IMG/VR virus record: IMGVR_UViG_3300028891_000010 | Span: 1 to 63,046 of that record | Length of the DNA: 63,046 nt | Source of the DNA: a virus | Lineage: Duplodnaviria; Caudoviricetes | Strand: one strand, 5' to 3' | Shown here: in pieces, positions 9,527 through 63,046 of the stretch | Layout of the letters: every line of letters starts with the position of its first letter | Numbering within the stretch: position 1 is the first letter of the stretch | Program-made: the position numbers and the translations under genes | Notes under the pieces: model-generated | Databases searched by the model: none | What the model saw: the letters and a program-made list of their open reading frames with translations, nothing else | Told to the model about the DNA's origin: nothing

Positions 9527-9759
9527 TTAAGGTACTAGATATTTTATCGGCTGTATTAACTCTTGTTTGTTTAAATCTAGTATATAAGTCTTACAAAATT
9601 TGGCTTTTGTATGTTATCTCTAGTATAATGTTTACTGTGGTGGTATGCTACAAACACTTACCTGGGTTAACGTTAATGGGGCTGTTCTTAATAGGAACTG
9701 GAATAAGTAACTATATAAAGGGGAGAAAACATGAACTTACCAGACGTACAAAACGTTAA
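9523..9759 (+). CDS. small 3-TM membrane protein (half-PnuC/SemiSWEET-like)
   Basis: Three hydrophobic segments; ATG 9523 overlaps the PRTase stop. Confidence 0.5.
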   Translation: MIKVLDILSAVLTLVCLNLVYKSYKIWLLYVISSIMFTVVVCYKHLPGLTLMGLFLIGTGISNYIKGRKHELTRRTKR

Positions 9760-10561
9760 AGTCAACTCAATTAAGATTAATAGAGTGGGCGTATCTAATG
9801 TTGACTTTCCCATTTATATTAAGTCTAAAAGTGGCGAAAAGGTACTATGTTACGCTAAAGTAAACATCTATATGTCTTTAAAGCGCAATTTGAGAGGGAT
9901 AAACATGAGCAGAGCAACTCAGGCTTTGATGAAATATAGGTATACCAGTTTTGACAGATGGGTACTGTGGAAGTTCTTGTATGATCTAAAAAAACGAAAC
10001 GACTCAGATGACGTTTATGCTGAAATCGCTTTTAAATATTTCACAGATAAAGAAGCACCAGTTACTAAAGAAAAATCAGTACTAGCACATGACTGTACTT
10101 TTATAGGGCATATTAACAAAAACAACCATTATACTTTTAGGCTAAGAGTAAGTGTTATAGGCACTAGTGTTTGTCCATGTTCACGTTCTATCTCAAGGGC
10201 AGGTGCTCATAATCAGCGCAGTATAGCAACTGTAACAGTAGAGACTAAAAAGAAGCGTACTCTATGGTTTGAAGATTTGATTAAACTTATAGAAAATCAA
10301 TTTTCTTGTAAAGTTTACTCTGTTTTAAAGAGACCAGATGAAAAATATGTCACAGAAAAAGGATACGAAAATGCCAAATTTGTAGAAGATATTGCTCGTG
10401 ATATAGCTTTAGCACTACAAAAAACTAATTTGTTGAGATGGTATAAAATAAAAGTAGAAAACGAAGAATCAATTCACACTCATAACGCTGCTGCTTATAT
10501 ATGTAGAAGACTCAAAGGAGGCAAAAAGTGGGTAGAAGCAAAACTAAAAGAGCTCAGATAG
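9731..10561 (+). CDS. folE2: GTP cyclohydrolase IB
   Basis: LPDVQ, INRVGV, GINMSR, CPCS, AHNQRS, LKRPDEKYVT, FVEDIAR, EESIHTHNA. Confidence 0.95.
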   Translation: MNLPDVQNVKVNSIKINRVGVSNVDFPIYIKSKSGEKVLCYAKVNIYMSLKRNLRGINMSRATQALMKYRYTSFDRWVLWKFLYDLKKRNDSDDVYAEIAFKYFTDKEAPVTKEKSVLAHDCTFIGHINKNNHYTFRLRVSVIGTSVCPCSRSISRAGAHNQRSIATVTVETKKKRTLWFEDLIKLIENQFSCKVYSVLKRPDEKYVTEKGYENAKFVEDIARDIALALQKTNLLRWYKIKVENEESIHTHNAAAYICRRLKGGKKWVEAKLKELR

Positions 10562-10905
10562 ACTGCTATATAGAAATAAAATTTTGTTTTGAAGGATTTC
10601 ATTTTTGGAAAGACGCACCTAAAGACGTAAGTTTTTTACGTAATTTACATAGACATTTGTTTCACGTAAGTGTTGTAGTTAAAGTAGATCATTTAAATCG
10701 TGATATTGAATACTTTCAACTGAAAAGAAAAGCTATAAAATTTACACCCAAATTACAGAAGATACTTAAGAAAGGTGCTAGCTGTGAAATGATAGCTTGT
10801 GAGTTATCTGAATATATTTATAGAGTGACTAAAAGTCCCTATATAAGAGTCAAAGTGAGTGAAGACGGGGAGAATTCGTCTATAGTTGAAAGGAGGCTAA
10901 TATGA
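10528..10905 (+). CDS. QueD paralogue, T-fold (DpdL-like, candidate CDG decarboxylase)
   Basis: FEGFHFW...LRNLHRHLFHV (LxxxHRHxF in place of QueD CxxxHGH), SCEMIA, VSEDGEN. Confidence 0.7.
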   Translation: MGRSKTKRAQIDCYIEIKFCFEGFHFWKDAPKDVSFLRNLHRHLFHVSVVVKVDHLNRDIEYFQLKRKAIKFTPKLQKILKKGASCEMIACELSEYIYRVTKSPYIRVKVSEDGENSSIVERRLI

Positions 10906-11696
10906 AGTGCTGTGCAATTCCTCCTAAGAAACATTTGGATTTAGCTCACGCTGGTGATTGGTATTTTTGCCTAGCTCAGTTATATTATAAAGATAAGAAC
11001 TATAGAAGGTTTTTTAAATCACTAAAACACAACGACTATGATTACATCATTTTGGATAATGGAGCTGCAGAACGTGATCAGATAAACGACGACACACTGC
11101 TAGATATAGTAGAAGATTTGAAGCCTAACGAGGTAATAGCTCCAGATACCTTATATGACGGACATGATACTTTACTACGCACTCGTAAATTTATTAAAAA
11201 GATGATCAAAAGAAGGCTAACTGTGGGTACAGATATAATGGGATGCCCTCAAGGATCTAATGTGAAAGAGTGGGTTAATTGCTACAAGGAAATGTTAGAC
11301 ATACCGCACATTGATGTTATAGGTCTTAGCAAGATATCTATTCCCTACTGCTGGAGTAAAGCAAAACACGACACAGCTATTGCTAAATCACGCAATAAAT
11401 GTATAGACTACCTAGTTAGTAAAGACCTCATAAGAAAACCTCTACATTTTTTAGGAATGGGAGATCCTAAAGAGTTTGAGCACTATGAAGACTTTGCTTA
11501 TGAATATAGAATATACTTTAGAAGTACTGATAGCTGCTACACTATACTTGCCGCATATCATAATATAGACTTTCATAAAGAATTTGAAAGAATAGAAACT
11601 GATAATTCATATTTTGATATAAAATTAACAGATAAGCAGATTAAGCTAGCTTTGAAAAATATTTGGTATTTAAGAAAAATCTTAAGGAGAGTATAG
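10902..11696 (+). CDS. TGT/DpdA-like TIM-barrel protein (candidate deazaguanine transglycosylase)
   Basis: ILDNGA, IAPD, CPQG, IGLS, LHFLG, RSTDS in TGT motif order; adjacent to folE2 and the QueD paralogue. Confidence 0.65.
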   Translation: MKCCAIPPKKHLDLAHAGDWYFCLAQLYYKDKNYRRFFKSLKHNDYDYIILDNGAAERDQINDDTLLDIVEDLKPNEVIAPDTLYDGHDTLLRTRKFIKKMIKRRLTVGTDIMGCPQGSNVKEWVNCYKEMLDIPHIDVIGLSKISIPYCWSKAKHDTAIAKSRNKCIDYLVSKDLIRKPLHFLGMGDPKEFEHYEDFAYEYRIYFRSTDSCYTILAAYHNIDFHKEFERIETDNSYFDIKLTDKQIKLALKNIWYLRKILRRV

Positions 11697-23577: not shown

Positions 23578-23952
23578 ATGAGATTAAGAGAAATAACTTT
23601 AACTTTTCATGAGTGTATTGAAGCAGGACACTGGGTACCAAATGACCCAGGGGTCTGCAGTCAAAGACATGGACATTCTTGGACTATAAATGTGTCTATA
23701 ATAGGCCTATATCACCCAACGCAGGGAATGCTAGTTAACTTTAGAGATGTTAAAAAAATTATACGAAGATTTGATCATACAACTCTAAACGATTACTTTA
23801 AGTTACCTACTGCTGAAAACCTAGCTAGATATTTTGCTATGAAAGTATTAAGACTAAATTCTGATAGTATCATTTCAGTTAAAGTTGACGTTGCTGAGAA
23901 GCAAGATAACAACATAGCTACTGCTATTATAGATAACTGGAGGTTTAGATGA
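23578..23952 (+). CDS. queD: 6-carboxy-5,6,7,8-tetrahydropterin synthase
   Basis: AGH, CSQRHGHSW, GMLVNF, FDHTTLND, PTAENLA. Confidence 0.9.
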   Translation: MRLREITLTFHECIEAGHWVPNDPGVCSQRHGHSWTINVSIIGLYHPTQGMLVNFRDVKKIIRRFDHTTLNDYFKLPTAENLARYFAMKVLRLNSDSIISVKVDVAEKQDNNIATAIIDNWRFR

Positions 23953-34978: not shown

Positions 34979-35286
34979 TTAGTTACCCTCCTGTATATTT
35001 GATATAGTCCCTTTACAAATTCAACAGCCTTTTCTTCACTATTAAATAAAGTATCTGTTTCTTTATGGTAAAAATATTGTTTGTCTTTATATCTAATGCA
35101 GTGTAATACAATATGAAAACTACTATTAAGTACGCCTATATGGCGTCTAAAAAAGACTAAATTTTCTTTGTTGTTTATTTTAAATAATGTAACGCCCTTA
35201 TAATTAACTTCAAAAGGAGCATCTATTTTCATAATTTCATCTATATCGTAAATTTTATCTTGTTTTATTATTCTTAATTTATTCAT
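34966..35286 (-). CDS. hypothetical protein
   Basis: ATG 35286 overlaps the upstream stop. Confidence 0.5.
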   Translation of the reverse strand: MNKLRIIKQDKIYDIDEIMKIDAPFEVNYKGVTLFKINNKENLVFFRRHIGVLNSSFHIVLHCIRYKDKQYFYHKETDTLFNSEEKAVEFVKGLYQIYRRVTKCLQ

Positions 35287-35672
35287 AAGCTCTTTACAAA
35301 AGTTATAGTTATATGGTTCCATCTACTACTTGTTTTACTACTTTTAATATCTAATATATAGCAGTCTGAGATGGTAAAAACACCTTCTATAACCAAATCA
35401 CCTTTTTTATTAGCTAGGTTATTAATTAAATTCACTATATACTGCTCTACCTCCAGCCTGTTATTTTTAACTACAAAAGTATCCACTGTTACAGTTAAAG
35501 ATCCACCTCCTAATTCGGAGGTATTCCATATTTTAATACCTTTAGCTCTTGGTATAATCCTGGTATGTACATTTCCTGAATAATCTACGTTAACCCACTC
35601 TGTTACTCCTAATTCGTATTCAGTGCTATTAACTACAAACTTAACTCTTTTATAATTACCAGGTACACTCAT
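35283..35672 (-). CDS. distal-tail-like protein
   Basis: 129 aa, tube-like beta pattern, directly after the tape measure. Confidence 0.5.
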   Translation of the reverse strand: MSVPGNYKRVKFVVNSTEYELGVTEWVNVDYSGNVHTRIIPRAKGIKIWNTSELGGGSLTVTVDTFVVKNNRLEVEQYIVNLINNLANKKGDLVIEGVFTISDCYILDIKSSKTSSRWNHITITFVKSL

Positions 35673-35674
35673 AA

Positions 35675-37933: not shown

Positions 37934-38256
37934 TACTTTATCCTCTTTATATCAGTTTTCAAAACTTTAGCTAATTTTTCTAAATTTTTTATCTCGTCTT
38001 CTTTATGATCTTTTTCTACTTTAAAGGGGTCTTTAAGATTAGGAGATATCTTACCTGAAAAACCCTTGGCTACGTTTAACTGTTGCAATTGATCTTCTAG
38101 ATTCCGTCTAAATCTTATTGTTTTTAAGAGATTGATTACGACATTCTGAGGCAGATTTAAGATATACTCCATACTCCAGCCATATTCTTTAGCTAGAGTA
38201 TCTACTACCATGTAAATATAAGCATCCGTATATCGTAAAAGTAATTCTTTTAACAT
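37933..38256 (-). CDS. tail assembly chaperone (second)
   Basis: LAKEYGWSMEYILNLP; between tail tube and tape measure. Confidence 0.7.
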   Translation of the reverse strand: MLKELLLRYTDAYIYMVVDTLAKEYGWSMEYILNLPQNVVINLLKTIRFRRNLEDQLQQLNVAKGFSGKISPNLKDPFKVEKDHKEDEIKNLEKLAKVLKTDIKRIK

Positions 38257-41356: not shown

Positions 41357-41366
41357 AATTGAAAAC
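41357..41366 (-). promoter_or_regulatory. late-gene motif GTTTTCAATT
   Basis: Just upstream of the SD of the gene starting at 41341. Confidence 0.65.
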
Positions 41367-43024: not shown

Positions 43025-44346
43025 AGCTTTTTAAGATATTTAACGATTGTTTCTGGTTTAATTGACCTCATACAAGCGTCTTTAATTCTATTACATAGGC
43101 ATTTATCAGGATCTATGCTTTGACGATCATCACATTTAAAGCAAGGTACACTAGGTCTAATAGGTATGCAATTTTCATAAGTAGAGCATCTCCATTCTGG
43201 TCTAATAGGTCCAAATAAAGCTACTGTTTTTTTATCAAATGCTCCTGCTATATGTAAAACACTAGTATCTACTGTTATAACGTAATCTGCTTGTTTTACT
43301 ATAGCAAATAGCTGTCTTATATTAGTTTTTTTCTGTAAATTAATACAGTTATGAAAATCAAATTCTTGCGTTCCTACTACTATGGGAGTGTAACCTTCTG
43401 ATTTCAGTAAGTTAATAAGTTGTTGAGTTAAATCTGAAGGATACGTTCTGTTGGAACCTACTGCGTACCAACATATAGCAACTGTGTTTTTGTAGTTTTT
43501 TAGTAAATCCCTAGCATGTTCTTTTTCTTCGTCGCTGAGTACTATAATTGGTTTTTTAATCAGTAAGTCTTTGGGATTTAAACCACATAAATAAGCTGTC
43601 GAATAAATTCTATGTTGCCTATTATAAAACTGTTTATAATTGCTTAACCGATATGATAATATAACAAAGCTGTGATATTGATGGATAGGAACATCTTGTC
43701 TTAAATAATAAACTTTGTCTATAAAGTCTAAATTATCAAAAATACACATTCTATTTCTATCCACTATATAGGAAACTTTCCAACCTTTCTTATGCAGTGT
43801 ATAAGCAGCAGGTAAAGACATTAATACGTCTCCTAATCCGTCAAAGGTTTCTATTAAAAAGCGTTTGTTTTGTTTTAGGTCTTTTTTAATAGATTGTAAC
43901 ATAGGTAATTCGTCTGGAGATTTAATCACTGGTAAGATAAAGCCCCAGTGGGTAGCAAATAGTTTAGCTACCTGTCTAGCTCTTGGAGTGTCATTACTAA
44001 AAACAGCTTTAAAAACAGCTGGGTTTTTAAACAATAAATGAGAAAACCATCTAAAATCCGTTTCTATATAAATTATATTATCGTGAATTATACGATTATC
44101 AGGAAGTTTAGTGCAGACGTATATTATTCCTATATTGCGTCTTAAGATAGATTTGATAAATTTAACATCTAATTTTTTACCATAGTGGTGAAATCCAAAA
44201 CCCACTATATAATAATCGCAGTCTAAAGGTAGGAATACAGAAGTTCCTGTACTGGCATATAAGAACTTATGATTTGTAACGGATTTATAATAAGTAGTAA
44301 CTGTATGCCAATTTGGATTATGAGCTAAATATAAAATGGGAGACAT
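43021..44346 (-). CDS. glycosyltransferase family 9
   Basis: GLGDVLMSLP, RTYP, ITVDTSVLHIAGAFDKKTVALFGP, CM.SI. Confidence 0.85.
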   Translation of the reverse strand: MSPILYLAHNPNWHTVTTYYKSVTNHKFLYASTGTSVFLPLDCDYYIVGFGFHHYGKKLDVKFIKSILRRNIGIIYVCTKLPDNRIIHDNIIYIETDFRWFSHLLFKNPAVFKAVFSNDTPRARQVAKLFATHWGFILPVIKSPDELPMLQSIKKDLKQNKRFLIETFDGLGDVLMSLPAAYTLHKKGWKVSYIVDRNRMCIFDNLDFIDKVYYLRQDVPIHQYHSFVILSYRLSNYKQFYNRQHRIYSTAYLCGLNPKDLLIKKPIIVLSDEEKEHARDLLKNYKNTVAICWYAVGSNRTYPSDLTQQLINLLKSEGYTPIVVGTQEFDFHNCINLQKKTNIRQLFAIVKQADYVITVDTSVLHIAGAFDKKTVALFGPIRPEWRCSTYENCIPIRPSVPCFKCDDRQSIDPDKCLCNRIKDACMRSIKPETIVKYLKKL

Positions 44347-46523: not shown

Positions 46524-48362
46524 CTAAATATGGAAATTTAAATATTTATATAAACTACTATATATTAACTCTACGTCTTCCAAAAGTATAATATCTATAT
46601 TTTTCTTTTTGCCTCCAAAGTAGTGTTCTTCATACTCTCTTTGCTTCTTTTCTTTAGGCTTATAACATATCCAAATTCTCCTACCTCCTATAGGAGCATA
46701 CATAAATACTATCCAGTCATTAAGAAGTTTTCCTTTAAATTTAAATAATTTAAAATGTCTTCCGTGAGGAGAAGTCTGCCTTCCTGCAAACCACTCTCCA
46801 TAATCATGTCTCCAGAAGAAAGCATATGCATTAGGAGTGCTTCCTATACTATTTGGTGAAACTACAAATGGTTCTTTTGCTCCTATATTTAGCCAACTAT
46901 TATGTACTACAAGCAAACCTGTTAAAAAGCTTTCATCCTCTTCTACCTGAAAATCGTAAAGTCTGATAGAAGTTTTGGAATTGTTCTCTAAGCTTTTTTT
47001 ATTGATAGAATAATACCAGAAATTCTCATCTTCTTCTTTTGGAGAGCTATAAGAACATACTTTTTTGTGAAACTCTACTATGTACGTTGTGTGTTTAGGA
47101 ATTATGGTATGTTTTTTATTAAGTCTGATAATCTCATTTGTATGTTTGGTATCTATTTTTCTTAATGTTGGATAATAACCTAAGCGCATTCCTATATACA
47201 ACACTTGCCCTATTAGATGTCTAGAAACTGATGTGTAACTATAAGCATCGTAAGTTTTGATGTTTTTCAACTTAGTCCCGTCGCTATCCATTAAACCTTT
47301 AAAAACAGCTTTTAGTTTATTATCAGGTAAATATAAAACCCACGAAGGTAGTTTTTTGAACCAAGATTTATATCCTAATCTATGAAGTTCTTCTTTAGAA
47401 GCACAATAGCAGTTCTCCTTTAACCACGTTACTAAACCTGAATCATAAAAACGTAAACTAGGATTTGTATTATAACAGACTCCTACATGATCTACTTTGA
47501 ACAGTTTTTTAGTTAGTTGTATAAGTTTATTAGCCTCATCTGTATTAGCACATTCTATACTAACTCCATGGCTTGCCATGTAAGTAGAACTTTTGCTAGA
47601 GATATTATGCGATGTGCTTACGTGACCATCTCCCACATAAAAACCTAACCAATAGCAGAAGTCTTCATTCACTGGAACTCTTTTAGTATATCCTGGAGGT
47701 ATAGTTAATTCTATATAATTAACATCTTTTATTTCAGGTTTAGGTTTAGGTAACAATAGTAAATCTTTGCTAGGACTAATCTCTCTTTCTAATTTTAAAC
47801 CATCTTTGGTAAATATACGGTGGTTGTTAAAATATATAGCAAAGTTACTACCATCAGGTTTTATATAGCAAAATCTATTTGATACTCCTTTTTCCATTAC
47901 TTTATCTTTAAACTGATTTCCAGGAGTAGTCCAGTGGCCTCCTTCAAAGTAAGAAGCTAGTTTTTTCTTTTTAGGATCTGTATAAGGAACTAGTCTTAAG
48001 TCTTGATGTATGCTTACTGGATCTAATAAAGCTATGATGTGTTTGATTTCTTTAGGTAAAGATTTAAATTTTTCTTCGTCTTTTAGTACTTTATCAATTA
48101 ATTTAGTTAGTTTCTTAGAACTTTTACCTTCTTGAGAGGCTTCTTTTATAGCTGATTTCCAGGAAAAGTTATAGTGTTTTTCAACTTTTTCTATTTTATT
48201 ACTATCTAAAAAATAATCTCTATCTAAACCAAACTTTTTCATATCAGATTTAGTAATATAGTCTATTAATTCAACTCTTACGCCACGTATATGAGTCTGA
48301 ACACAGTATTTTCCTGTCATGCCTTCTTCAATTGTCCATTGACCTGTATTTACTTTTATCAT
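46524..48362 (-). CDS. LigD 3'-phosphoesterase-like protein containing an intein
   Basis: VQTHIRG, IHQDLRL, HWT, DYGEW, FKFKGKLL..W follow the LigD PE motif order; central intein motifs. Confidence 0.6.
   Translation of the reverse strand: MIKVNTGQWTIEEGMTGKYCVQTHIRGVRVELIDYITKSDMKKFGLDRDYFLDSNKIEKVEKHYNFSWKSAIKEASQEGKSSKKLTKLIDKVLKDEEKFKSLPKEIKHIIALLDPVSIHQDLRLVPYTDPKKKKLASYFEGGHWTTPGNQFKDKVMEKGVSNRFCYIKPDGSNFAIYFNNHRIFTKDGLKLEREISPSKDLLLLPKPKPEIKDVNYIELTIPPGYTKRVPVNEDFCYWLGFYVGDGHVSTSHNISSKSSTYMASHGVSIECANTDEANKLIQLTKKLFKVDHVGVCYNTNPSLRFYDSGLVTWLKENCYCASKEELHRLGYKSWFKKLPSWVLYLPDNKLKAVFKGLMDSDGTKLKNIKTYDAYSYTSVSRHLIGQVLYIGMRLGYYPTLRKIDTKHTNEIIRLNKKHTIIPKHTTYIVEFHKKVCSYSSPKEEDENFWYYSINKKSLENNSKTSIRLYDFQVEEDESFLTGLLVVHNSWLNIGAKEPFVVSPNSIGSTPNAYAFFWRHDYGEWFAGRQTSPHGRHFKLFKFKGKLLNDWIVFMYAPIGGRRIWICYKPKEKKQREYEEHYFGGKKKNIDIILLEDVELIYSSLYKYLNFHI
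46899..47905 (-). mobile_element. LAGLIDADG intein, N-terminal block A not recognisable
   Basis: Block B NNHRIFT, C WLGFYVGDG, E FKGLMDSDG, H TSVSRHLI, F LYDFQVE, G VVHN|S. Upstream boundary approximate. Confidence 0.85.
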
Positions 48363-49627
48363 GACTTTAACCTAGCAGCTAGATTCTTAATGGTTTTTAA
48401 TATGTAAGGATACCCACTTATTTCTTTGTCAAAAGACTTGTTAAAGCTAAATTTGTCATGAAGGTTTTTTATCTCTCTCAAGGACTGTTTTAGAAGCTCT
48501 AAAGTAACCTTTTTACCGTTACTCAGTAAGAAAGATCTAACTATAACCTCTTTCAGATGTGCAGGAGTTAATCCTTCAGATATCCTAGCAATACATGCAA
48601 GAGATTTTTTCTTATTTTCTATATCTATATTTTCACTGTATCTCCAAAGAATTTTAAATCTAAGAACTGCATCAGGTAGCTTAAACTCAATAATATCGTC
48701 AAATCTTCCAGGACGATCTATTAAAGTTTTGGGAAGCCTTTCAGGAAAATTAGTAGTTAGTATAGTTAGTATTCCTTCGTTAGGTACCAATCCATCCATC
48801 TGAGTCTTAATAGTGTCTAGTGTTGGTCCTTGTAAGCATCTATCAATGTCCTCTATAAAAAGTATTGACGGCTGTAACTCTCTAGCCATATCGAATAAGT
48901 AGGAAGTTTTCAAATGCATAAAGTCTGTTGCAGTTACCCATATAAAAGTAGCGTTTTTAACAGTATTCATTATAATTTTTCCTGACAAGGTTTTTCCAGT
49001 GCCAGGAACACCTGAAAAAATAACACCTCGTTTAAAAGGAATATTTGCTTTTTCATATTTCTCTTTGTGATTAAAGAAACTAAATACTGTGTCATTCAGC
49101 TTTTGAAGAGTACTCTTATCTAGAATTATCTTATTACTATCTATACTGGATAATGGTAAGAATTTTCCAAATGGAGTTATTTTTTCGTTCTTCCAAGGAT
49201 TATTATTATTGACGAAACGATGAATGTCCTTTACAAAGGAATCAATAAACGAGTAGTCCTTATCTCTACCATAAATAACAAGCTTTTGACAGTCAAAGGC
49301 AGGGTAAAAATGAATTACCAAAGGAACAGTGTCTTTAACGATAATAAACCCACTTACTAATAACCTTTCTTTAGTGTCTCTACCTACTTCAAGCAGTTCA
49401 TAAGTAGCGGGAACGTATGTTTCGTTATACTTTAAATTAATTATCTTCACTTCTTTTTCTTTCACTGCATTTTTTAGTCCTTTAGAGTAAAGAGCTACCT
49501 TATAAAAAGGAATCTGGATATCCAAACGAGTCTGACCGAAAACATCTACTCCTAAGATTTTTTCTAAGACTCTATCTAGCAAGCTTTTAGAACCCATGCC
49601 TTGGGGTAACTGAATTTCCTTTTTCAT
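48359..49627 (-). CDS. AAA+ ATPase from an internal in-frame start (422 aa)
   Basis: AAAAGGAGGTATAGAG-ATG at 49627, in frame with the long ORF. Confidence 0.55.
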   Translation of the reverse strand: MKKEIQLPQGMGSKSLLDRVLEKILGVDVFGQTRLDIQIPFYKVALYSKGLKNAVKEKEVKIINLKYNETYVPATYELLEVGRDTKERLLVSGFIIVKDTVPLVIHFYPAFDCQKLVIYGRDKDYSFIDSFVKDIHRFVNNNNPWKNEKITPFGKFLPLSSIDSNKIILDKSTLQKLNDTVFSFFNHKEKYEKANIPFKRGVIFSGVPGTGKTLSGKIIMNTVKNATFIWVTATDFMHLKTSYLFDMARELQPSILFIEDIDRCLQGPTLDTIKTQMDGLVPNEGILTILTTNFPERLPKTLIDRPGRFDDIIEFKLPDAVLRFKILWRYSENIDIENKKKSLACIARISEGLTPAHLKEVIVRSFLLSNGKKVTLELLKQSLREIKNLHDKFSFNKSFDKEISGYPYILKTIKNLAARLKS

Positions 49628-52600
49628 CTCTATACCTCCTTTTGATATTAACAATTCACAAAGAGGAGCTCTGTTAATAATTGTATAAGAGTTAATTTTA
49701 TCAGCTTTAACTCTCTGTAGCTTGCCTCCACAAATAGGACATATTAAATTGTTAGGAAGTTCTTCATCGCTATCTATAGTATAGTCACACTTTTCACATC
49801 TATAAACGTATTTAGGTTTTTCTTTAGAAGGTTTTGTAGGTTCTGTAGATACAGGCCAAGGTAAAGGATCACCATGAGGAGAAGTTATTTGACCTAAATC
49901 ATCTGCTTTTAATAAAGCTTCATAAAAAGACTGTGCTTTTTCTACACTCATTCTATCTATAACTAAATAACTATCAGGCTCTTTCTTATTGGGTTTAAGT
50001 GTAATAACTCTACTCTGAAAAAGAGTATAACGAATTTTGCTGTTAACTTTTTCTTTTTTATACTCAGTAGCTGCTATGTTTAATATCTGCCCTACTTCAG
50101 CCTTGATCTCAGTATTAAAGGTTTTTCCAAGAACTCCATACCATTTACCGTTTAGCTCTTTTATAGGTGTAAACAAGTCTTTTTTATCTTGAGGTATTCC
50201 GTAACCTACTGTGTAATTATAAACATTTTTATTTTTGACTTTGTGAACTTCTAAGACTATTGTATCTGCCTCATAGCTATACTTCGCTTTTACCCATGTC
50301 ATAGTCTTACCATCTAACTCATAAACTCCACTATAAGCTTTTATCATTAATCCATCTATTCCATTTAATCCTCCTAAACGATAAGATCCTAAGTGATGCT
50401 TTAAATAGTTAAATTTCTTTACTAATTGTTCTTTAGTCTTAATATCAAATCCAGGACATAGTACAAAGTGCTTTTTGAATTTTTTAGAGACCTCTTTTAA
50501 AACTTTTAGTCTTTCCGATAAAGGTTTATTGTGTAAATCTTCTCCATTGTAATAAAGAATGTCGAATACAAATACTCTAACATTCTCATCAGATCCTGGT
50601 TTTTTAGCTTGAGACCACTTCATTAAATCGTGTCTAGATAACCATCTATTTTTATTAGGATCCCATTCCATTAGTTCTCCATCTAAAATAATACCTGAAT
50701 CATGTAAAGTTGATAGTTCTTTAACTAAACTAGGAAGCTTACTTGATACATCTTTCATAGCATCTTCAAAGTAGATTAAACTTTTTTTGTTAGCATCTTG
50801 AGAAGCAATCATTCGAAAGCCATCAATTTTATATTCTGCTCTAACTTTACCTTCTTGCTCTACATAAAACTTACAGAAGTACTCCCAAGCTTCTTCTGGA
50901 TCAAAGTATTCAAGTTCGTGGTAAGAGCTAGCGGTTGCTTTCAAAGGAGGAAATCTCATAAGAGGTTTAAGCTTTTTGTCTTTTTGGATAGACTTACCTA
51001 CTCCAGGTCTATCACATCTTCTCATTTCTCCATTGCACCGAGGACACTTAATATCCTTACAGTGGTTATCAGATATCATCTTATAGCCGCAGTCTAAACA
51101 CTCACAGCAGAACTTCTCTTTTTTGAAATGAAGTATAAATTTACCATCGTAGTATCTAAAAGTAGCTGGTCTTATTATAACTGCGTCGTATTTATTTTTA
51201 ATTGAGCTTAAAAAACTCCACAGTTTACTCTTTTTAACTATCCATCTAATAGGCAAATAAAAAGGTCTATCTGCTTTGTTTAACCATTTCTTGTGCATGA
51301 ACAATAATCTATTTATAATGATTTCTTTAAATAAGTTATCGCTTCTATACGCTAACAAGTCAGTAATAATCTCCTTATTATTATCCGTTATTACATGCTC
51401 ATAAATTAGTCTGTTTTTCTTATCAACTACTATTCCATGCTTGCCTTTGATAAGAGGCTCTATTACATACGTATCAGACTTGAAAGGAAGTTTTGGAATA
51501 ATTTTACAAGATTTATAAAATTTAGTATAGTCAGGAAGTCTAGGGTTAACTATATTGGGTGAGTCTTTTTTCTTTAATATCAAATCATATACATTTAAAA
51601 CATCACCATGAGATATCTCATTTCCTATATAGTGAGGATTGTATTTTTTTAAAAACTGTTTAATGGCTTTGTATATGACTTCTGGGGATATTATATCTAA
51701 ATCATTAGGATCACTCTTGTGTAAAGACGAACCAACAAATCTAACTATATTGCTCTTAATAACTATCTCATCCTGCAGCTCATTCCATATCTCATAAACT
51801 TTTATTTCTCTTCCTAGAATACGATATGTTTTTTTATCTAGATCATTAATTACACGATGTTTTAATCCTCTCCTAAACATTTCTTTAACTACTAAAACAT
51901 GAACTTGAAGAACTTTATTAGTTTTCTTAATGGCCCATAACTGATGACACCTTAAGTGAACCATTAGTAACTCTTTTTTAGAAATTTTTCTAAGTATATC
52001 GGGATTGTTTAGGATAGTATCGAAGCCCGGCTTCAAAACAAACTCGTCTCTTTGACTATATAATTTATTTAAGTCTATTAATAGCTTTTCGCCTTCTTTA
52101 GCTGTCCTTATTTCTACTATTTTACAGTTAGGATGTTCTTTTTTATATTTTTTAAGTCTTTCTTTTAATATTTTGTTGGCTTTACTAAATTCGGGCCACT
52201 GATTTCCCATTCCAGTAAACAGAGTATATTTATTATTTAGACTTAGTATGAAATCTAAATGTTCCAATACAGCTACATGATTATTCAAAGGTATTTGATG
52301 ATCCCAGTAAGCACCATCTAAAATAGCTAAGATGTTATTAGAAAAATACTTAAGTTCATATTCGTCCCATATTGGACCTCCATCTGACATATATACAAAA
52401 ACGTTATCTATATTATAAGCAACAGTAGGAAAACGAGGATCGTGAAATACTTTTAAAGCTTTTATAGTGTGATCTACTATTTTGAAAGGTTTTTTAGTAC
52501 CAATAGGAACAAATAAATAGTTGCTATAGGATTTTTCAGACCATCTTAGTTTAATTCTTTCAAAGACTTGAGGTAAAGCGTATAGTTCGACTGTTTTGTT

Positions 52601-52846
52601 ATTTTCTTCTAAGAATTTGTTAAAAGTTGGTATTCCGTCTACTGCATCAGAGTGAAAGTGACTAATTAATACATGAGTCACATCTAAAAGCTCTTCTTTA
52701 GTTGCTTTTTCTAATATATCTTTACCTACATCTATCAAAATAGTAACGGGAGGAGATATGATAAGACAAGAAGGCTTATACTTTCCTAAATAAGACTTGG
52801 GAGGTTTGGTTGTTTCTGCTCCTGTTCCTAGTATTTTTATAATCAT
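48359..52846 (-). CDS. 1495-aa multidomain protein: MBL-fold hydrolase, NTase-like, Zn ribbon, ATP-dependent DNA ligase, capsid-like peptide, Zn ribbon, AAA+ ATPase
   Basis: ILGTG, SHFHSDAVDG; VGS..DLD; EYKIDG, ILDGEL, VFDILY, DGLMIK, WVKAK; GVPGTGKT, FIEDID, TTNFP, RPGRFD. Confidence 0.85.
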   Translation of the reverse strand: MIIKILGTGAETTKPPKSYLGKYKPSCLIISPPVTILIDVGKDILEKATKEELLDVTHVLISHFHSDAVDGIPTFNKFLEENNKTVELYALPQVFERIKLRWSEKSYSNYLFVPIGTKKPFKIVDHTIKALKVFHDPRFPTVAYNIDNVFVYMSDGGPIWDEYELKYFSNNILAILDGAYWDHQIPLNNHVAVLEHLDFILSLNNKYTLFTGMGNQWPEFSKANKILKERLKKYKKEHPNCKIVEIRTAKEGEKLLIDLNKLYSQRDEFVLKPGFDTILNNPDILRKISKKELLMVHLRCHQLWAIKKTNKVLQVHVLVVKEMFRRGLKHRVINDLDKKTYRILGREIKVYEIWNELQDEIVIKSNIVRFVGSSLHKSDPNDLDIISPEVIYKAIKQFLKKYNPHYIGNEISHGDVLNVYDLILKKKDSPNIVNPRLPDYTKFYKSCKIIPKLPFKSDTYVIEPLIKGKHGIVVDKKNRLIYEHVITDNNKEIITDLLAYRSDNLFKEIIINRLLFMHKKWLNKADRPFYLPIRWIVKKSKLWSFLSSIKNKYDAVIIRPATFRYYDGKFILHFKKEKFCCECLDCGYKMISDNHCKDIKCPRCNGEMRRCDRPGVGKSIQKDKKLKPLMRFPPLKATASSYHELEYFDPEEAWEYFCKFYVEQEGKVRAEYKIDGFRMIASQDANKKSLIYFEDAMKDVSSKLPSLVKELSTLHDSGIILDGELMEWDPNKNRWLSRHDLMKWSQAKKPGSDENVRVFVFDILYYNGEDLHNKPLSERLKVLKEVSKKFKKHFVLCPGFDIKTKEQLVKKFNYLKHHLGSYRLGGLNGIDGLMIKAYSGVYELDGKTMTWVKAKYSYEADTIVLEVHKVKNKNVYNYTVGYGIPQDKKDLFTPIKELNGKWYGVLGKTFNTEIKAEVGQILNIAATEYKKEKVNSKIRYTLFQSRVITLKPNKKEPDSYLVIDRMSVEKAQSFYEALLKADDLGQITSPHGDPLPWPVSTEPTKPSKEKPKYVYRCEKCDYTIDSDEELPNNLICPICGGKLQRVKADKINSYTIINRAPLCELLISKGGIEMKKEIQLPQGMGSKSLLDRVLEKILGVDVFGQTRLDIQIPFYKVALYSKGLKNAVKEKEVKIINLKYNETYVPATYELLEVGRDTKERLLVSGFIIVKDTVPLVIHFYPAFDCQKLVIYGRDKDYSFIDSFVKDIHRFVNNNNPWKNEKITPFGKFLPLSSIDSNKIILDKSTLQKLNDTVFSFFNHKEKYEKANIPFKRGVIFSGVPGTGKTLSGKIIMNTVKNATFIWVTATDFMHLKTSYLFDMARELQPSILFIEDIDRCLQGPTLDTIKTQMDGLVPNEGILTILTTNFPERLPKTLIDRPGRFDDIIEFKLPDAVLRFKILWRYSENIDIENKKKSLACIARISEGLTPAHLKEVIVRSFLLSNGKKVTLELLKQSLREIKNLHDKFSFNKSFDKEISGYPYILKTIKNLAARLKS

Positions 52847-56482: not shown

Positions 56483-57151
56483 TTAAAACTCCCACTTGTA
56501 GTAAAGAATAATTCTTTTATCTCCTTCTTTAAAACCTATTCCATAACCCAAACCTAAATAACTATTATCTATTTTTTTAAATTCTATTTTATAAGACACG
56601 CCACCGTAAAATCCTTTGTTAGTAAGAAAAGTATCTAATCTCCATTTAAACCATTTAAAAAGTTGTAATCCAGCTCCTACTTCTCCTTTTTTCTTGCTAT
56701 AACCTAAGATTCCGATGGGTTTTATTTCTACTCCGTAGGGCTTTAACCTCTCTCTTAAAACGGGTATATCTTTAACTTTTATAGTTTTTAAAATAGTCTT
56801 CTTATCCCTATCTACTACTTCCGCCGTTCCATCTTTTTTAATATGAAGATAGTGTTCGTTTAACTTAATAAAAGTCTCTTTTCCTTTCAAATCAAAAGTA
56901 GGTATCCTTTCTCTTAATCCCATATATTTTCCCCAACCGAATACTGCTAAAATTATAATAGAGTAAATAATTAGTTTTCTTAAATTAAAAAAGTGATAAA
57001 AATCTTTAACCCATAACACAGGCTCGTTTAGTTTAAAGAACTTTTTAAATTTATTCTTATCAAAAAATTCCTCTCTCACCTCGTTAAACAGAAACTTTCT
57101 AAAAGAAACTATTATTATTCCTATTAAGACACCTATTAGTATTTGAATCAT
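56483..57151 (-). CDS. membrane protein with N-terminal TM helices and C-terminal beta strands (lysis-related?)
   Basis: Two hydrophobic helices; Gly/aromatic strands ending YYKWEF. Confidence 0.55.
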   Translation of the reverse strand: MIQILIGVLIGIIIVSFRKFLFNEVREEFFDKNKFKKFFKLNEPVLWVKDFYHFFNLRKLIIYSIIILAVFGWGKYMGLRERIPTFDLKGKETFIKLNEHYLHIKKDGTAEVVDRDKKTILKTIKVKDIPVLRERLKPYGVEIKPIGILGYSKKKGEVGAGLQLFKWFKWRLDTFLTNKGFYGGVSYKIEFKKIDNSYLGLGYGIGFKEGDKRIILYYKWEF

Positions 57152-57177
57152 TTAAAAACCTCTATTTTAACTTAATT

Positions 57178-57375
57178 CTAAGCAGCTCCTTTTTCCTCTT
57201 TGCTCTTAAAAACAGGTTTACCAAACATTAGCTTTATTTTATAGATCTCTAAACAACTAGGGCATCGTTTATAGATGTATTTACTAGTCCAATTTTCTTC
57301 TGATTTTACACAGTAAGTTTGTAAAGCAATTCCACATTTTTTACATTTAAAAATTTCTTCGTTGAGTAATTTCAA
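57178..57375 (-). CDS. small zinc-finger protein
   Basis: CKKC ... CPSC. Confidence 0.5.
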   Translation of the reverse strand: MKLLNEEIFKCKKCGIALQTYCVKSEENWTSKYIYKRCPSCLEIYKIKLMFGKPVFKSKEEKGAA

Positions 57376-57558
57376 CTATTTACCCCACTTCAAGTAGCAA
57401 AACATTATTACTACAAGTAAAAAATAAATAGCATTAATTATCTTTGTGGATCTATGGTTGTGAAGGTGATTAGTAAAATGCTTGTCTAGATTCTGTAATT
57501 TAACCTCTAAGACAGCAATTCTTTCTAAAATCTCTACAAAATACTTCTTAACGTCCAT
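57376..57558 (-). CDS. small coiled-coil plus TM protein (holin-like)
   Basis: ILERIAVLEVKLQNL..TNHL then a C-terminal TM; SD GGGAGG. Confidence 0.55.
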   Translation of the reverse strand: MDVKKYFVEILERIAVLEVKLQNLDKHFTNHLHNHRSTKIINAIYFLLVVIMFCYLKWGK

Positions 57559-58813
57559 TTAAATTCCTCCCATTATTGAAAACTTTAAAAAGTGCACTCA
57601 AGATGGAATTAAATCTCACTGTATGTAGGCAGTTTTGATTATTAGTTTTAATACATTCTGCTTTATTAGCATCTATCGCCTCATTGCAACAATAGCAAGA
57701 TACTTTAGGTATTAATGAAACTACATTATCATACGCTCTCCATTTATGGTAAATAGTAGATGGTAAAAATACTGTAGGCTTATTAAAAGCAGCTGCTATA
57801 TGTAAAGTAGATGTGTCTACTGTTAGTACTAAATCCGAACTGTATGCTACTGAAAAAAATGTTCTAATATCTAATTGACCTGTTAAATTTAGGCAATTAT
57901 TATAGGCCTTTCGATTGTATCCAGTAATTACTACGTTAAAACTTTTAGACAAATAATCAATCAAAGGTTGTTGCATTCTATCAGGATAGCTTCTTCTCAC
58001 ATCAAAAGATTCAAAAGTAATAAGCAGCTTAGGACTTTTAACACCTTTTAAAAGAGTTTCACCTTTTTTTATTTCATCTTCTGTAAGTATAATTTCTGGT
58101 TTACTTATCACTAGTTCGTCGTTTTTTAATCCACACATATTAGCAGTAGCATAAATACGGTGTTGCCTGCAGACTAAATTACTATAATTAGATAATTTAA
58201 AACTTATATCATAAAAACGCTTGTAAAATAACAGACTAAATTCCTTGGGATTGGTATATATACGATTTATATAAGGTAGATTTTGCAAAACTACTTCTCT
58301 TCCAGGCCATACTAAAAAGTCTACAGTGTAACCTTTAGAGTAATAAGTTTTAGCTGTGGGAGTGCACATCAGTAGATCTCCTATACCATCGTAAGTTTTA
58401 ATTAGAATAGCCTTACTAATTAGTTTTTTAAGAGCAATTATTCTTTCCAGATCTTTTAGTTTGTATATCTTTAATCCTGTGAATTGACTAAATGCATTCG
58501 CTAATACTTTACCTTTCTCTCCTACTCCATAAACTGCTTTAAATATAAACGGATCCATAAAAAGAGTATGTATATACCAGTGAGAATTAACATGAATTAT
58601 AGCAAGTTTTTTATCTGAAATAGGTTCTCTGGTATCTAAGGTAACTATTACTACTGAGATATTATTATTTAGTATATTTTTAACTTTAGACACTAAGTCT
58701 TCATATAGTAGATCTGCAAAAATTAAGACTACTGCGTCTCCATCTATACTAAAACATCTATCTCTAAATGGCTGATTAATTTTAACCTTTTTTGTTATTA
58801 GCTCTACTTTCAT
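57548..58813 (-). CDS. glycosyltransferase family 9 (second paralogue)
   Basis: GIGDLLMCTP, RQHRIY, RSYP, LTVDTSTLHIAAAFNKPTV. Confidence 0.85.
   Translation of the reverse strand: MKVELITKKVKINQPFRDRCFSIDGDAVVLIFADLLYEDLVSKVKNILNNNISVVIVTLDTREPISDKKLAIIHVNSHWYIHTLFMDPFIFKAVYGVGEKGKVLANAFSQFTGLKIYKLKDLERIIALKKLISKAILIKTYDGIGDLLMCTPTAKTYYSKGYTVDFLVWPGREVVLQNLPYINRIYTNPKEFSLLFYKRFYDISFKLSNYSNLVCRQHRIYATANMCGLKNDELVISKPEIILTEDEIKKGETLLKGVKSPKLLITFESFDVRRSYPDRMQQPLIDYLSKSFNVVITGYNRKAYNNCLNLTGQLDIRTFFSVAYSSDLVLTVDTSTLHIAAAFNKPTVFLPSTIYHKWRAYDNVVSLIPKVSCYCCNEAIDANKAECIKTNNQNCLHTVRFNSILSALFKVFNNGRNLNGR
57574..57583 (-). promoter_or_regulatory. late-gene motif GTTTTCAATA
   Basis: Upstream of the SD of the gene starting at 57558. 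Confidence 0.65.
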
Positions 58814-59186
58814 ATTTACCTAGCTCATAATTCCATTTAGATATTCTATCTGCTAGGTCTATTATCATCTCTTCATTTAGATATCTATAAGGTGGAAAAC
58901 ATCTATCATCTATTAACAAATCATACTTAGGCTTATCCATAACTAATGCATCATATGGAATTTTATAATCCTCCAACCACTGCTCTGTAGCATGCCTAGC
59001 TACTGGATGTCTATGGGTGAATATTACTATTTTACATCCTTTCTCTTTAAGTCTTTTAACTAATTCTACCATGTATTTCTTAGGTTTTCTATCATAGCAT
59101 TCACCTACGTTCTTAGAAGAAGATACAGGTTCACATAGAGTGTTATCTAAATCAATTGCTATTATTGGAAGATTTATTTCTTCCAT
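58782..59186 (-). CDS. HAD-family phosphatase
   Basis: IAIDLDNTLC, IFTHR, KPKYDLLIDDR. Confidence 0.8.
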   Translation of the reverse strand: MEEINLPIIAIDLDNTLCEPVSSSKNVGECYDRKPKKYMVELVKRLKEKGCKIVIFTHRHPVARHATEQWLEDYKIPYDALVMDKPKYDLLIDDRCFPPYRYLNEEMIIDLADRISKWNYELGKYESRANNKKG

Positions 59187-59623
59187 GCTTTGTCAGGTTT
59201 AATAAATTTAATATTCCAGATCCAGTCCTCTTTCAACACCTTCTCTATAAAGTATCTACAGCACCTAATTACATCTTCTTCAGTTATAGGTGCAAATTTT
59301 TTTAGTGTGAATATTCTATCAAAGTAAAAAGGAGTAATACTTGCTGACTCTACATCGAAATATTCATAAAATCCTGTGTCTTTCATATAAAAGCTATATC
59401 TAGCTTCAAAAGTTTTGAATGCTCTTAAAGTTATTATTTCAAATAAGTATTGATAGTTCTTTTCGTCCTCTTTATCGATTGCTACTATACCTAAGAAATG
59501 ACGTTTATTCTTTTTCCATTCCCAGGAAGTAATATAAAGCATCTGATCGTTCTTATCATAGAGCTTACAAAGAGATTTTTTCAAGTCCCTAAGTGCTTTC
59601 TTGGTCTTCTTTCTTACTATCAT
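59174..59623 (-). CDS. hypothetical protein
   Basis: SD AAAGGAGG places the start at 59623. Confidence 0.55.
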   Translation of the reverse strand: MIVRKKTKKALRDLKKSLCKLYDKNDQMLYITSWEWKKNKRHFLGIVAIDKEDEKNYQYLFEIITLRAFKTFEARYSFYMKDTGFYEYFDVESASITPFYFDRIFTLKKFAPITEEDVIRCCRYFIEKVLKEDWIWNIKFIKPDKAWKK

Positions 59624-59942
59624 CTTGATTTGCCTCCTTTTGAGCAGGTTGTTCGTTAGTAGTTTCGGTTTTCTCGTTTGGCGAAGACGGCACTTTATTA
59701 GGGTCATAGTAACCTGGTGGAGTCTGAGGTTTTACTAGTTTACCCGATAGTTCTTTAGAATAGTCTTTACTAACTTGTTCTTTAAGTTGTTCTAATAAAG
59801 AGACTACTTCCATTAGATAGTAAGAAGCTTTTACTATTAATTTTCGATGCTCTCTATAAGGTGAATAAAGTCTCCATAATATTCTCATTAAATGATCAGC
59901 TTTCTTCAGTTGTGTCTCTATACGTCTCGGTGTTAGATACAT
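59589..59942 (-). CDS. hypothetical protein
   Basis: 117 aa; SD GGAGGT. Confidence 0.55.
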   Translation of the reverse strand: MYLTPRRIETQLKKADHLMRILWRLYSPYREHRKLIVKASYYLMEVVSLLEQLKEQVSKDYSKELSGKLVKPQTPPGYYDPNKVPSSPNEKTETTNEQPAQKEANQDDSKKEDQEST

Positions 59943-61542
59943 CTTCTACCTCCTTCAAACTTATCTTTTCCTGTTCTTCATTTATATTAACGCCTTTTAG
60001 TTTAGCAAATTTCTCTGTTAATTGGCCCCAAAAAGATATAGCGTTAAAATAAAATCTAACTTTTCTTGTTAAAGGTGATTCATGTATTATATGTCTAGCT
60101 ATTTTACCATTTCTTAACCAATAGCCTCCTGTATTGGTGATAATTATAGTAGTTACTGCGTCAAATGAATTGACTCCTAATTGATACAAAGTAACTATTC
60201 TTTCTGGATTACCTACTCCAAATCCATGAACAAACTGTATTTTATTCTTTATCTCTTGAAATTCTTTGCTTTTAGTTACATAAGATATCCATTCTACTTG
60301 GTTTTTTAAAGATGTAGTAGCTATACCTCCAAATGCTAATGCTATGTTGTCCTGTTCAAATATCTTTAAATCTATGTATCTTTTTAAACACTCTAGATAT
60401 TCCTCTTTGTTGTTGCCTTGTAATACGAATACTTTAGTAGTTTTAAATGAGGGCTTCCAGTCTCTGAATTTAATAGCATTTTTAATAGTCATGTCTACAG
60501 CCTCTTGAGGTGTGATTTTCCAGTGCTCAAATAAGAATGGAAAGGTAGGTATGTCTAAAGAAGTGCATATTTCTGGTTTAATATTCTCATAAAACGCTAT
60601 TAACTCATCTATTTTAGAAAAGAAATCCCACTGTTTATGCTTCATGCAAGTAAACGCTCCACAATCTAGAAATAATCCATCTAACTTATCTCTATTTAAC
60701 AGGACGTTAGAGAACTGCTTTGCTATACCTCTATCGTGCATAATTGTAAATGCACTATATAGTAAACGTTTACTTGGTAAATATTCTATATCTCTAGCGT
60801 CAAATCCGTAGTCTCCTATAAAGTGAAATCTTAAGTCGCTTGGTACTATCTGCTCTTTTATATCAAATCTACCCGCTTTTCCTTTACGTTTTAATACATC
60901 CTCCACACTTATTCCTAGTCTTTCAGCTATTTCATAGGCATTGCATATTCTATTTACATAGTGTTTAACATTGGTCCTCTTTATTTCTTCTCTTTCCAAC
61001 TTCCGCAGCAAATTAAGTTTTTCCATCTTATTAGGTAATTTCTTAATCCACACGAATGCCGCTAGTGTTAATACTCCCTTATTAACGTACTCTTGTATTT
61101 CTTCTGGTTCCTCCAATATAGACATAATATTACTTATATTAGATACTGATTTACCTGTGACCTTGGATAAGTCCTCTAGTTTGTAATTAAATTGTTCTTT
61201 TAGATACTTATAGCCCCTAGCTTCCTCCAGTAGAGTTAGATCCTCTCGCTGTATGTTCTCTAATAGAGTTAACTCGTATGCCGTCTTATCATCACACTCT
61301 ATTACCCTTGCTTTTATATTGTCCCTTTTTAGTATCTGGTGTGCTCTATATCTTCTCTCCCCTGCTATTATAGTATAATTATTTTCCCCTATTTTCCTAA
61401 CTACTATAGGTTGTAGTAATCCATTTAATTTTATATTTTCGGCTAATTCTCTTAATTTAGTCTTATCAAAATTAATTCTTGGTTGGTAGGGGTTTCTATG
61501 AATTTGATTTAAGGGAAGGTTAAATACTCCTAAATCTTTCAT
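59896..61542 (-). CDS. ParB/Spo0J domain fused to TGT/DpdA-like domain
   Basis: NPYQPR..GLLQPIVV..IIAGERRYRA..ENIQREDL plus HTH; then FLDCGAF, SLDIP, VLQG, AFGG, VHGFG, NSFD. Confidence 0.85.
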   Translation of the reverse strand: MKDLGVFNLPLNQIHRNPYQPRINFDKTKLRELAENIKLNGLLQPIVVRKIGENNYTIIAGERRYRAHQILKRDNIKARVIECDDKTAYELTLLENIQREDLTLLEEARGYKYLKEQFNYKLEDLSKVTGKSVSNISNIMSILEEPEEIQEYVNKGVLTLAAFVWIKKLPNKMEKLNLLRKLEREEIKRTNVKHYVNRICNAYEIAERLGISVEDVLKRKGKAGRFDIKEQIVPSDLRFHFIGDYGFDARDIEYLPSKRLLYSAFTIMHDRGIAKQFSNVLLNRDKLDGLFLDCGAFTCMKHKQWDFFSKIDELIAFYENIKPEICTSLDIPTFPFLFEHWKITPQEAVDMTIKNAIKFRDWKPSFKTTKVFVLQGNNKEEYLECLKRYIDLKIFEQDNIALAFGGIATTSLKNQVEWISYVTKSKEFQEIKNKIQFVHGFGVGNPERIVTLYQLGVNSFDAVTTIIITNTGGYWLRNGKIARHIIHESPLTRKVRFYFNAISFWGQLTEKFAKLKGVNINEEQEKISLKEVEDVSNTETYRDTTEES

Positions 61543-62742: not shown

Positions 62743-62934
62743 ATGGCTTTTAATAATGGTATTGTAGATTTTATGAATAAAAAGAAAATAGCAATTAAGA
62801 TAATGCCAAGTAAAATAAGAGGCTATAGTTTTGAATATCATTTTATAAGCAAAAGAGAATATATTGAGTATAACTTAAGAAGATATTTACGGATAATTGA
62901 ATATTTAAGAAAAAGAGGTCTAATATGCTTATAA
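62743..62934 (+). CDS. hypothetical protein
   Basis: Short ORF; start uncertain. Confidence 0.4.
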   Translation: MAFNNGIVDFMNKKKIAIKIMPSKIRGYSFEYHFISKREYIEYNLRRYLRIIEYLRKRGLICL

Positions 62935-62965
62935 TTGGTCTAATTTTGATTATATTGAGCTTAAC

Positions 62966-63046
62966 CTGTCTCTTATACACATCTGACGCTGCCGACGAAG
63001 GCTTAGGTGTAGATCTCGGTGGTCGCCGTATCATTAAAAAAAAAAA
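62966..63046 (+). other. Illumina Nextera adapter read-through (artefact)
   Basis: CTGTCTCTTATACACATCT GACGCTGCCGACGA, index AGGCTTAG, GTGTAGATCTCGGTGGTCGCCGTATCATT, poly-A. Confidence 0.99.

Follow-up and report, generated by a model that had tools for sequence, protein, structure and literature searches.

A linear virus record of 63,046 bp from IMG/VR (IMGVR_UViG_3300028891_000010, Caudoviricetes), hereafter the window, carries on its minus strand, at positions 59896..61542, a gene coding for a protein of 548 amino acids in which a ParB module is fused to a barrel of the TGT/DpdA type. The gene was delimited as an ATG-to-stop open reading frame (ORF) and further defined by its domains and by an AlphaFold2 (AF2) model. 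Taking together the sequence motifs, the structural models and the analogy with a bacterial system, the fusion is, on a modest balance, probably a DpdA-type DNA guanine transglycosylase mounted on a ParB module that would act as nucleotide switch and DNA-binding device. By analogy, it may be read as the one-polypeptide counterpart of the bacterial DpdA and DpdB pair.

The two halves of the fusion protein

Pfam assignments and the AF2 model give the domain order ParB_N, helix-turn-helix (HTH), linker and barrel. The ParB N-terminal (NTPase) domain, residues 8-98 (61249..61521, minus strand as for all features of this gene), matched ParB_N (PF02195) at 98 bits against a cut-off of 26.3 (E 3.3e-28). 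It is followed by the ParB HTH DNA-binding domain, residues 100-198 (60949..61245), which matched HTH_ParB (PF17762) at 54 bits against a cut-off of 22.6 (E 2.1e-14) and whose Foldseek matches include ParB 6t1f alongside 7nfu and 6sdk. A linker of lower model confidence, residues 218-237 (60832..60891), then leads to a TGT/DpdA-like (beta/alpha)8 barrel, residues 238-472 (60127..60831), defined by the TGT profile PF01702, by Foldseek and by invariant residues. The PF01702 match, residues 308-481, scored 35.1 bits (gathering cut-off 26.3; E 1e-8) and covers a partial range of the profile, positions 112-274 of 357. The last element, residues 473-515 (59998..60126), is a family-specific C-terminal hairpin and long helix, recognised from secondary structure and from the interface of a modelled dimer. 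In NCBIfam, the ParB/RepB/Spo0J model parB_part (TIGR00180; cut-off 58.45) gave 144.6 bits and the Noc model 162 bits. In PHROGs, many ParB families matched the fusion, and the queuine tRNA-ribosyltransferase family matched it weakly.

Three motifs of ParB nucleotide binding and hydrolysis are intact in the translation: QPR at residues 20-22 (61477-61485), GERRYRA at residues 61-67 (61342-61362) and ENIQR at residues 95-99 (61246-61260), which ends one residue beyond the ParB_N domain. Using phmmer against the PDB, the CDP-bound Myxococcus xanthus ParB (7bnk) aligned with fusion residues 4-187 (E 3.5e-35). In this alignment the QPR, GERRxRA and ENxQR sequences of the fusion line up with the 7bnk motifs, and E62 corresponds to the position mutated in the E93A ParB entry. 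At the level of fold, Foldseek gave 36-39% identity of the ParB module to 7bnk, Noc (7nfu) and Bacillus subtilis ParB (6sdk), and the fold matches also included clamps of the KorB type, with 26% identity for KorB. QPR, GERRxRA and ENxxR are invariant in 12 of the 12 closest homologues. Because of these invariant motifs and of the alignment with 7bnk, 7nfu and 6sdk, the sequence of the ParB half identifies it as a canonical Spo0J/Noc-type module. A preliminary description of this DNA had called it a complete Spo0J-like ParB. This holds for the N-domain and the HTH, but the C-terminal dimerisation domain of ParB is missing, and residues 238-515 form instead the TGT-type barrel with its hairpin-helix. 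Searches with PF13614 and PF01656 found no ParA-type ATPase in the window, the record being about 68% complete according to CheckV.

The structure prediction called for in the preliminary description yielded a confident AF2 model, with a mean predicted local distance difference test value (pLDDT) of 92.5 and a predicted template modelling score of 0.70 (75-row alignment). In blocks of ten residues, pLDDT drops to 85 (residues 211-220) and 73 (residues 221-230) in the linker area. The barrel matches TGT-type structures, the best of them in the PDB being the DNA preQ0 insertase DpdA (7ui4; E 8.5e-10, 302 columns, 20% identity by Foldseek). Archaeosine TGT (arcTGT, 9.2e-9) and bacterial TGT (1.3e-8) rank behind it, the whole set of TGT-type matches spanning 8.5e-10 to 1e-7. 

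Conservation within the barrel is concentrated on a few positions. Across 19 fused homologues, with overall identities as low as 24%, no variation is seen at D293, D330, Q375, G376, G405, H439, F441, G442, P446 and D461. When stand-alone forms are included (75 sequences), H439 and D461 remain invariant and D293, D330 and Q375 nearly so. In the C-terminal hairpin-helix, W475, R477, H484, I486, R496, F499, N500 and W505 are conserved. Bacterial DpdA is reported to have three invariant active-site aspartates, acting as general acid/base, in base recognition and as nucleophile, and mutating the two catalytic ones abolished exchange (PMC10164549). By analogy, D293 (codon 60664-60666, in LDCGAF) and D461 (codon 60160-60162, in SFD) are the putative catalytic aspartates of the fused barrel, and D330 (codon 60553-60555) its putative base-recognition aspartate. 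We presume a residue-by-residue equivalence of these aspartates to those of Z. mobilis TGT. Domains and translation thus agree with the earlier observation of a GERRYRA box and an HTH joined to a TGT-type barrel with DCGAF and SFD motifs.

Recurrence of the fusion and related systems

The same architecture was found repeatedly in large protein collections. In a collection of 5.8 billion sequences with precomputed domains, 9 of 9 homologues retrieved with the barrel as query carry ParB_N and HTH_ParB (478-562 residues), and a TGT match was precomputed in 8 of the 9. An exhaustive search of 1.84 billion cluster representatives (50%-identity clusters) gave 84 barrel matches. With a hidden Markov model (HMM) built from the family, a ParB N-domain was detected ahead of the barrel in 19 of the 84, comprising 10 long forms of about 500-590 residues and 9 short forms of 421-481 residues. 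Most of the remaining representatives are stand-alone barrels of about 250-310 residues. Ten matches were checked with Pfam; ParB_N was above the gathering score in four (P0021, P0037, P0038 and P0039), and P0021 also has HTH_ParB. Overall, the sequence data support a catalytically plausible DpdA-like barrel in conserved fusion with a ParB NTPase and HTH module.

Among deposited phages the fusion is rare. Full-length matches were absent from GenBank phages, since 0 of 67 matching records cover at least 80% of the fusion, and the GenBank phage matches listed all fall on the ParB part. With tblastn at E<=1e-5, the fused barrel matched none of the DpdA proteins of GenBank phages, and at E<=1 the barrel alone gave one weak GenBank phage match, an archaeal virus. 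A short-form representative was likewise covered in full by 0 of 58 GenBank phage records. Scans of IMG/VR returned one true relative, G001 (locus L004), the other 79 of the 80 loci kept in the relative scan matching the ParB part only; the C-domain alone as query found no loci there. Long matches at L013, L029, L030, L033 and L041 were rejected as fusions, because these loci have ParB genes in tandem and no barrel. Three near-identical short loci were all that the metagenome scan returned, and two scans of species-representative genomes gave no relatives, so there is no host or prophage lead. In the ESM Atlas, a sub-threshold lead only (score 0.77) pointed to a ParB_N/DUF6610 cluster.

We found no description of a ParB-DpdA/TGT fusion in the literature, the supplementary protein lists of the phage DpdA papers lying outside the search, and the main texts of PMC6884629 and PMC10516641 do not contain the word 'ParB'. 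The one-protein version of the DpdA/DpdB system is undescribed, and its barrel defines a DpdA-like branch, as yet unnamed, whose members occur either alone or fused to ParB.

The closest parallel is the Salmonella Montevideo DpdA/DpdB system (7ui4; PMC10164549), which likewise associates a DNA transglycosylase of the TGT fold with an NTPase of the ParB superfamily. Bacterial DpdA is reported to require the ParB-like ATPase DpdB (PMC10164549), and the parallel with DpdA/DpdB drawn in the preliminary description is apt in view of this requirement. The fused barrel has the same three active-site aspartates as DpdA. The systems differ in that two chains are used in the bacterium and one in the phage, and the fusion lies in a phage genome and not in a defence island. 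The ParB parts also diverge: DpdB is described as having a DndB-like DGQQR motif and a DndB/SspE-like C-terminal helical domain (PMC10164549), where the fusion has GERRYRA and HTH_ParB. 

Among phages, DpdA1 to DpdA4 (PMC6884629, PMC10516641) resemble the fusion as TGT-like enzymes tied to 7-deazaguanine genes. We considered DpdA4 of HVTV-1 as a hidden ParB fusion and rejected it, its N-terminus being acidic and devoid of a ParB domain. In cluster B mycobacteriophage CRB2, a ParB-superfamily gene lies beside DpdA and was proposed to be a dpdB homologue (PMC6392294); there the two genes are separate whereas here they are one, and the CRB2 ParB was compared by its description only. The ParB clamps themselves (Spo0J, Noc and KorB; 6sdk, 7bnk, 7nfu and 8qa9) share with the fusion the fold of the N-domain, the motifs, the HTH and the linker, but in the fusion an enzyme barrel stands in place of the C-terminal dimerisation domain, and ParA, parS or Noc-binding sites (NBS) were not found in the window. 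Finally, ParB_N domains fused to phage DNA methyltransferases have been noted, their function being stated as unknown (PMC12783734), and methylases with ParB_N are among the PHROG and tblastn matches of the fusion family. They have in common with the present protein a ParB N-domain joined to a phage DNA-modifying enzyme. The predicted reaction of the fusion is base exchange and not methylation, and its long form adds a full HTH_ParB.

Second TGT-like gene and genome context

A second TGT-like gene is found on the plus strand of the window, at 10902..11696. First weakly matched by our barrel HMM, as was its G001 counterpart, it was then confirmed by tblastn, with 36.4% identity over 98% of its length to CGPG_00065 of Cellulophaga phage phiST, a protein named DpdA3 by Hutinet et al. 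2023 (PMC10516641). The family models PF01702, NF041059, PF23859 and PF20314 returned in the window the fusion itself or nothing as regards a second TGT copy. The gene at 10902..11696 is thus a stand-alone member of the DpdA3 family, and the fused barrel is only its profile-level kin: hhalign of the two families gave a probability of 96.7 (E 4.7e-10, 19% identity, 192 columns) with the catalytic motifs aligned. Direct sequence similarity between the fused barrel and DpdA3 was not found, phiST being absent from the matches listed. Because the relation is visible at profile level only, at 19% identity, the preliminary description was right in recognising two dissimilar TGT-like proteins in this genome.

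The DpdA3 gene is preceded by a homologue of DpdL, a proposed decarboxylase of 7-carboxy-7-deazaguanine (CDG), at 10528..10905 (plus strand). Its product is 36% identical to phiST CGPG_00067 (DpdL) by blastp, and its LRNLHRHLF sequence fits LxxxHRHxF, reported as the DpdL signature (PMC10516641). FolE2 (GTP cyclohydrolase I type 2; PF02649, E 1.5e-79) is encoded at 9731..10561 and QueD (PTPS family; PF01242, E 1.7e-21 in a six-frame search) at 23578..23952, both on the plus strand. These sequence matches show that the phage genome encodes part of the 7-deazaguanine pathway. The sister genome G001, a viral contig of 67 kb that shares synteny with the window across most genes, has QueC (listed as L087 8214-8831) together with a diverged gene of the DpdA3 type, and no match to DpdL was obtained in it. 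From these gene sets, the two phages probably carry different 7-deazaguanines, 7-deazaguanine itself being predicted for the window phage. Three further genes lie in the same regions: a purine phosphoribosyltransferase-like gene beside FolE2 (9095-9526), a nucleoside 2-deoxyribosyltransferase-like gene among the 7-deazaguanine genes (22793-23479) and, beside QueD, a gene for the N-domain of a dATP/dGTP diphosphohydrolase (23949-24296). As a set, these genes hint at dGTP depletion or at a route on the nucleotide level.

Two unrelated GC-rich viral contigs (L097 4549-6811; L100 1575-3767) each have a stand-alone relative of the barrel, separated by about 0.4-0.5 kb from a gene for a C5 cytosine DNA methylase. 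QueC and DpdA3 are absent from both contigs, which contain no 7-deazaguanine synthesis gene among those tested. Methylase neighbours without synthesis genes fit a DNA-modification role that depends on a base made by the host.

The fusion gene heads a minus-strand block that includes the prohead protease, major head protein and tape measure genes. The plus-strand block ends in the portal gene, which is preceded by an ORF that is probably the terminase from its position only, having no family match. This order fits the fusion being the first gene of the structural arm. Gene order and strand therefore agree with its earlier placement as first gene of the late arm; the late control proposed with it has gene order as its sole basis. 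A promoter scan remained at chance level (57 sites against 54.6 expected), as did a terminator scan. 

In three close short loci, as in the window, the fusion gene is followed by genes for proteins of 117 and 177 residues, a HAD-type phosphatase, a GT9-like glycosyltransferase and a 60-residue protein. In G001, the fusion gene (57% identity) begins 36 bases from a contig end, and of the series only the 117- and 60-residue proteins are kept near this gene. In the close relatives L090-L092, the two enzymes that come first after the fusion gene are conserved. The structural arm of the window contains a HAD/PNKP-type phosphatase (58782-59186), a fusion of pyruvyl transferase and methyltransferase (41366-43024) and two paralogous GT9 (heptosyltransferase-like) glycosyltransferases (57548-58813 and 43021-44346), one of which adjoins the major head protein gene. 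This set of enzymes could serve virion glycosylation or DNA hypermodification.

Several other features of the two genomes were recorded. The family A DNA polymerase (4056-6359) has an N-terminal domain of the uracil-DNA-glycosylase superfamily (residues 23-161). A 1495-residue protein (48359-52846) is recognisable only in its C-terminal ATPase-like region (residues ~1225-1465); its G001 homologue has 1627 residues. The primase-helicase (1128-3284, 718 residues) and the probable terminase (25598-27415, 605 residues) are both much longer in G001 (56726-60016, 1096 residues; 35220-38081, 953 residues), which suggests inteins or other insertions there. At its far end (63798-66039; L088 3798-6039), G001 has genes for an M42 aminopeptidase and an MFS/BT1 protein (folate-biopterin transporter family), which are either part of a host flank or auxiliary genes connected with pterin/deazapurine supply. 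The last 81 bases of the window (62966-63046) consist of a Nextera adapter and then poly-A and are an artefact of sequencing; the minus-strand ORFs 62843-63034 and 62843-63046 run into the adapter and are partly derived from it.

Mode of action and alternatives

As a DpdA-type enzyme on a ParB module, the fusion could work as follows. Two copies would pair through the C-terminal hairpin-helix of the barrel, at the site of ParB's own dimerisation domain, and binding of a nucleoside triphosphate (NTP), probably CTP, by the N-domains would close the dimer on DNA. Guanines would then be flipped out by the tethered barrels and replaced with a 7-deazaguanine base; this would probably be 7-deazaguanine itself or else a precursor, for instance CDG. 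In this scheme the NTP switch of ParB would gate access to duplex DNA. Either the protein would slide from a loading site, or the ParB module would be an NTP-gated grip on DNA, as proposed for DpdB.

The pairing step was examined by modelling a homodimer of residues 232-535. The model scored 0.55, whereas the best of three controls scored 0.00. Runs had at least 64% of contacts in common, with a partner pLDDT of at least 86, and the modelled interface comprises hairpin-helix residues 474-510 together with residues 250-256. In the calibration, this mark was reached by 20 of 30 one-chain-pair structures and by 1 of 23 single-chain structures; these counts are approximate only, because the dimer model used an alignment of its own. 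A real dimer would place the barrel pair exactly at the position of ParB's C-terminal gate, and a closed ring round DNA would then be topologically possible.

From motif conservation and this model comes a bolder version, which we regard as tentative and rather doubtful: the protein would be a genuine sliding clamp under CTP control, in which the dimer of base-exchange enzymes would itself form the closing gate, and would load on, encircle and scan phage DNA, converting guanines processively. CTP use and sliding are inferred here only from the conserved motifs and the dimer model. That phage DNA alone would be modified, and before packaging, as first suggested for this gene, is speculation. 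The phage-specific loading site that was part of the same suggestion was not borne out: because there is neither a parS or NBS consensus nor a conserved palindrome, this idea is without support. The window has 0 matches to the parS consensus at up to three mismatches and 6 to the NBS consensus, none with fewer than two mismatches; a conserved palindrome common to the window and G001 was not found. A perfect 14-bp palindrome, AGTAAACGTTTACT, is present inside the fusion gene at 60761-60774. It is one of five GC-containing perfect 14-mers in the window, does not figure in the list of perfect palindromes of G001 and is probably due to chance.

Several observations, besides these missing parS and NBS sites, weigh against a DpdA-type enzyme on a ParB module. 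The structural Zn site CxCx2Cx22H, reported as conserved in TGTs and in bacterial DpdA (PMC10164549), is absent from the fused barrel, which has no CxCxxC; cysteines of the fusion protein occur only at 83, 200, 294, 299, 326 and 385. The barrel also stays below the cut-offs of DpdA models, with 38.4 bits for the equivalog NF041059 (NCBIfam; cut-off 200) and no six-frame match to PF23859 in the window at E<=10. Since TGT homodimers have been solved, the good score of the dimer model may mirror likeness to them and not binding, and bacterial DpdA is reported to be a monomer (PMC10164549). QueC and radical-SAM QueE were not detected in the window, and the incompleteness of the record counts on the same side. 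Lastly, phiST has DpdA3, is not among the listed fusion matches and has DNA reported as fully modified (PMC10516641), which leaves the need for a second enzyme unexplained.

This last point bears on a different arrangement, in which the fusion is not autonomous but helps the stand-alone DpdA3: ParB would supply NTP-driven DNA opening, and the barrel would pair with DpdA3 or hand it the substrate. The presence of both genes in the window and in syntenic G001 is consistent with such a partnership, as are the need of bacterial DpdA for DpdB (PMC10164549) and the reported failure of DpdA3 to function by itself in E. coli, for which the authors suggested missing partners (PMC10516641). We nevertheless consider it unlikely, given the full modification of phiST and the fact that all catalytic residues, superfluous for a mere scaffold, are kept in the fused barrel.

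An even smaller chance is given to the fusion being a ParB/KorB-like regulator or genome organiser, the barrel binding a 7-deazaguanine ligand or only dimerising, with no exchange. The invariance of D293, D461, D330 and Q375 in homologues as distant as those described above argues against it, as do the DNA-modification neighbourhoods of the stand-alone barrels and the failure to find ParA in the window. It would account for the closeness of the ParB module to chromosomal ParB and Noc (36-39% identity), the KorB-type clamps among the fold matches, the position of the gene at the head of a strand block, the modelled barrel dimer and the loss of the Zn site. Action on host DNA through host parS, or on host tRNA, in takeover or anti-defence is very improbable: the ParB module is nearer to chromosomal ParB/Noc than to phage ParB-nuclease families (Noc model, 162 bits) and no phage-borne parS was found, but no host is known, the DNA-binding HTH speaks against tRNA, and the phage's own 7-deazaguanine genes favour self-protection, the documented role of these bases (PMC6884629).

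One bacterial system is known to tie a DpdA-type transglycosylase to an NTPase of the ParB type, by a mechanism that is unresolved, and a natural fusion brings independent support for this functional tie. In the fusion the NTPase part is of the canonical ParB kind, for which the cycle of the CTP clamp is well understood, so that the part played by a ParB-like partner in base exchange becomes testable in a single, well-modelled polypeptide. The data also indicate that some phages carry two very different predicted DNA transglycosylases. If the sliding clamp is true, it would represent a new route to processivity and to self/non-self targeting of a DNA-modifying enzyme, and could explain the purpose of the widespread ParB_N fusions to phage DNA-modifying enzymes.

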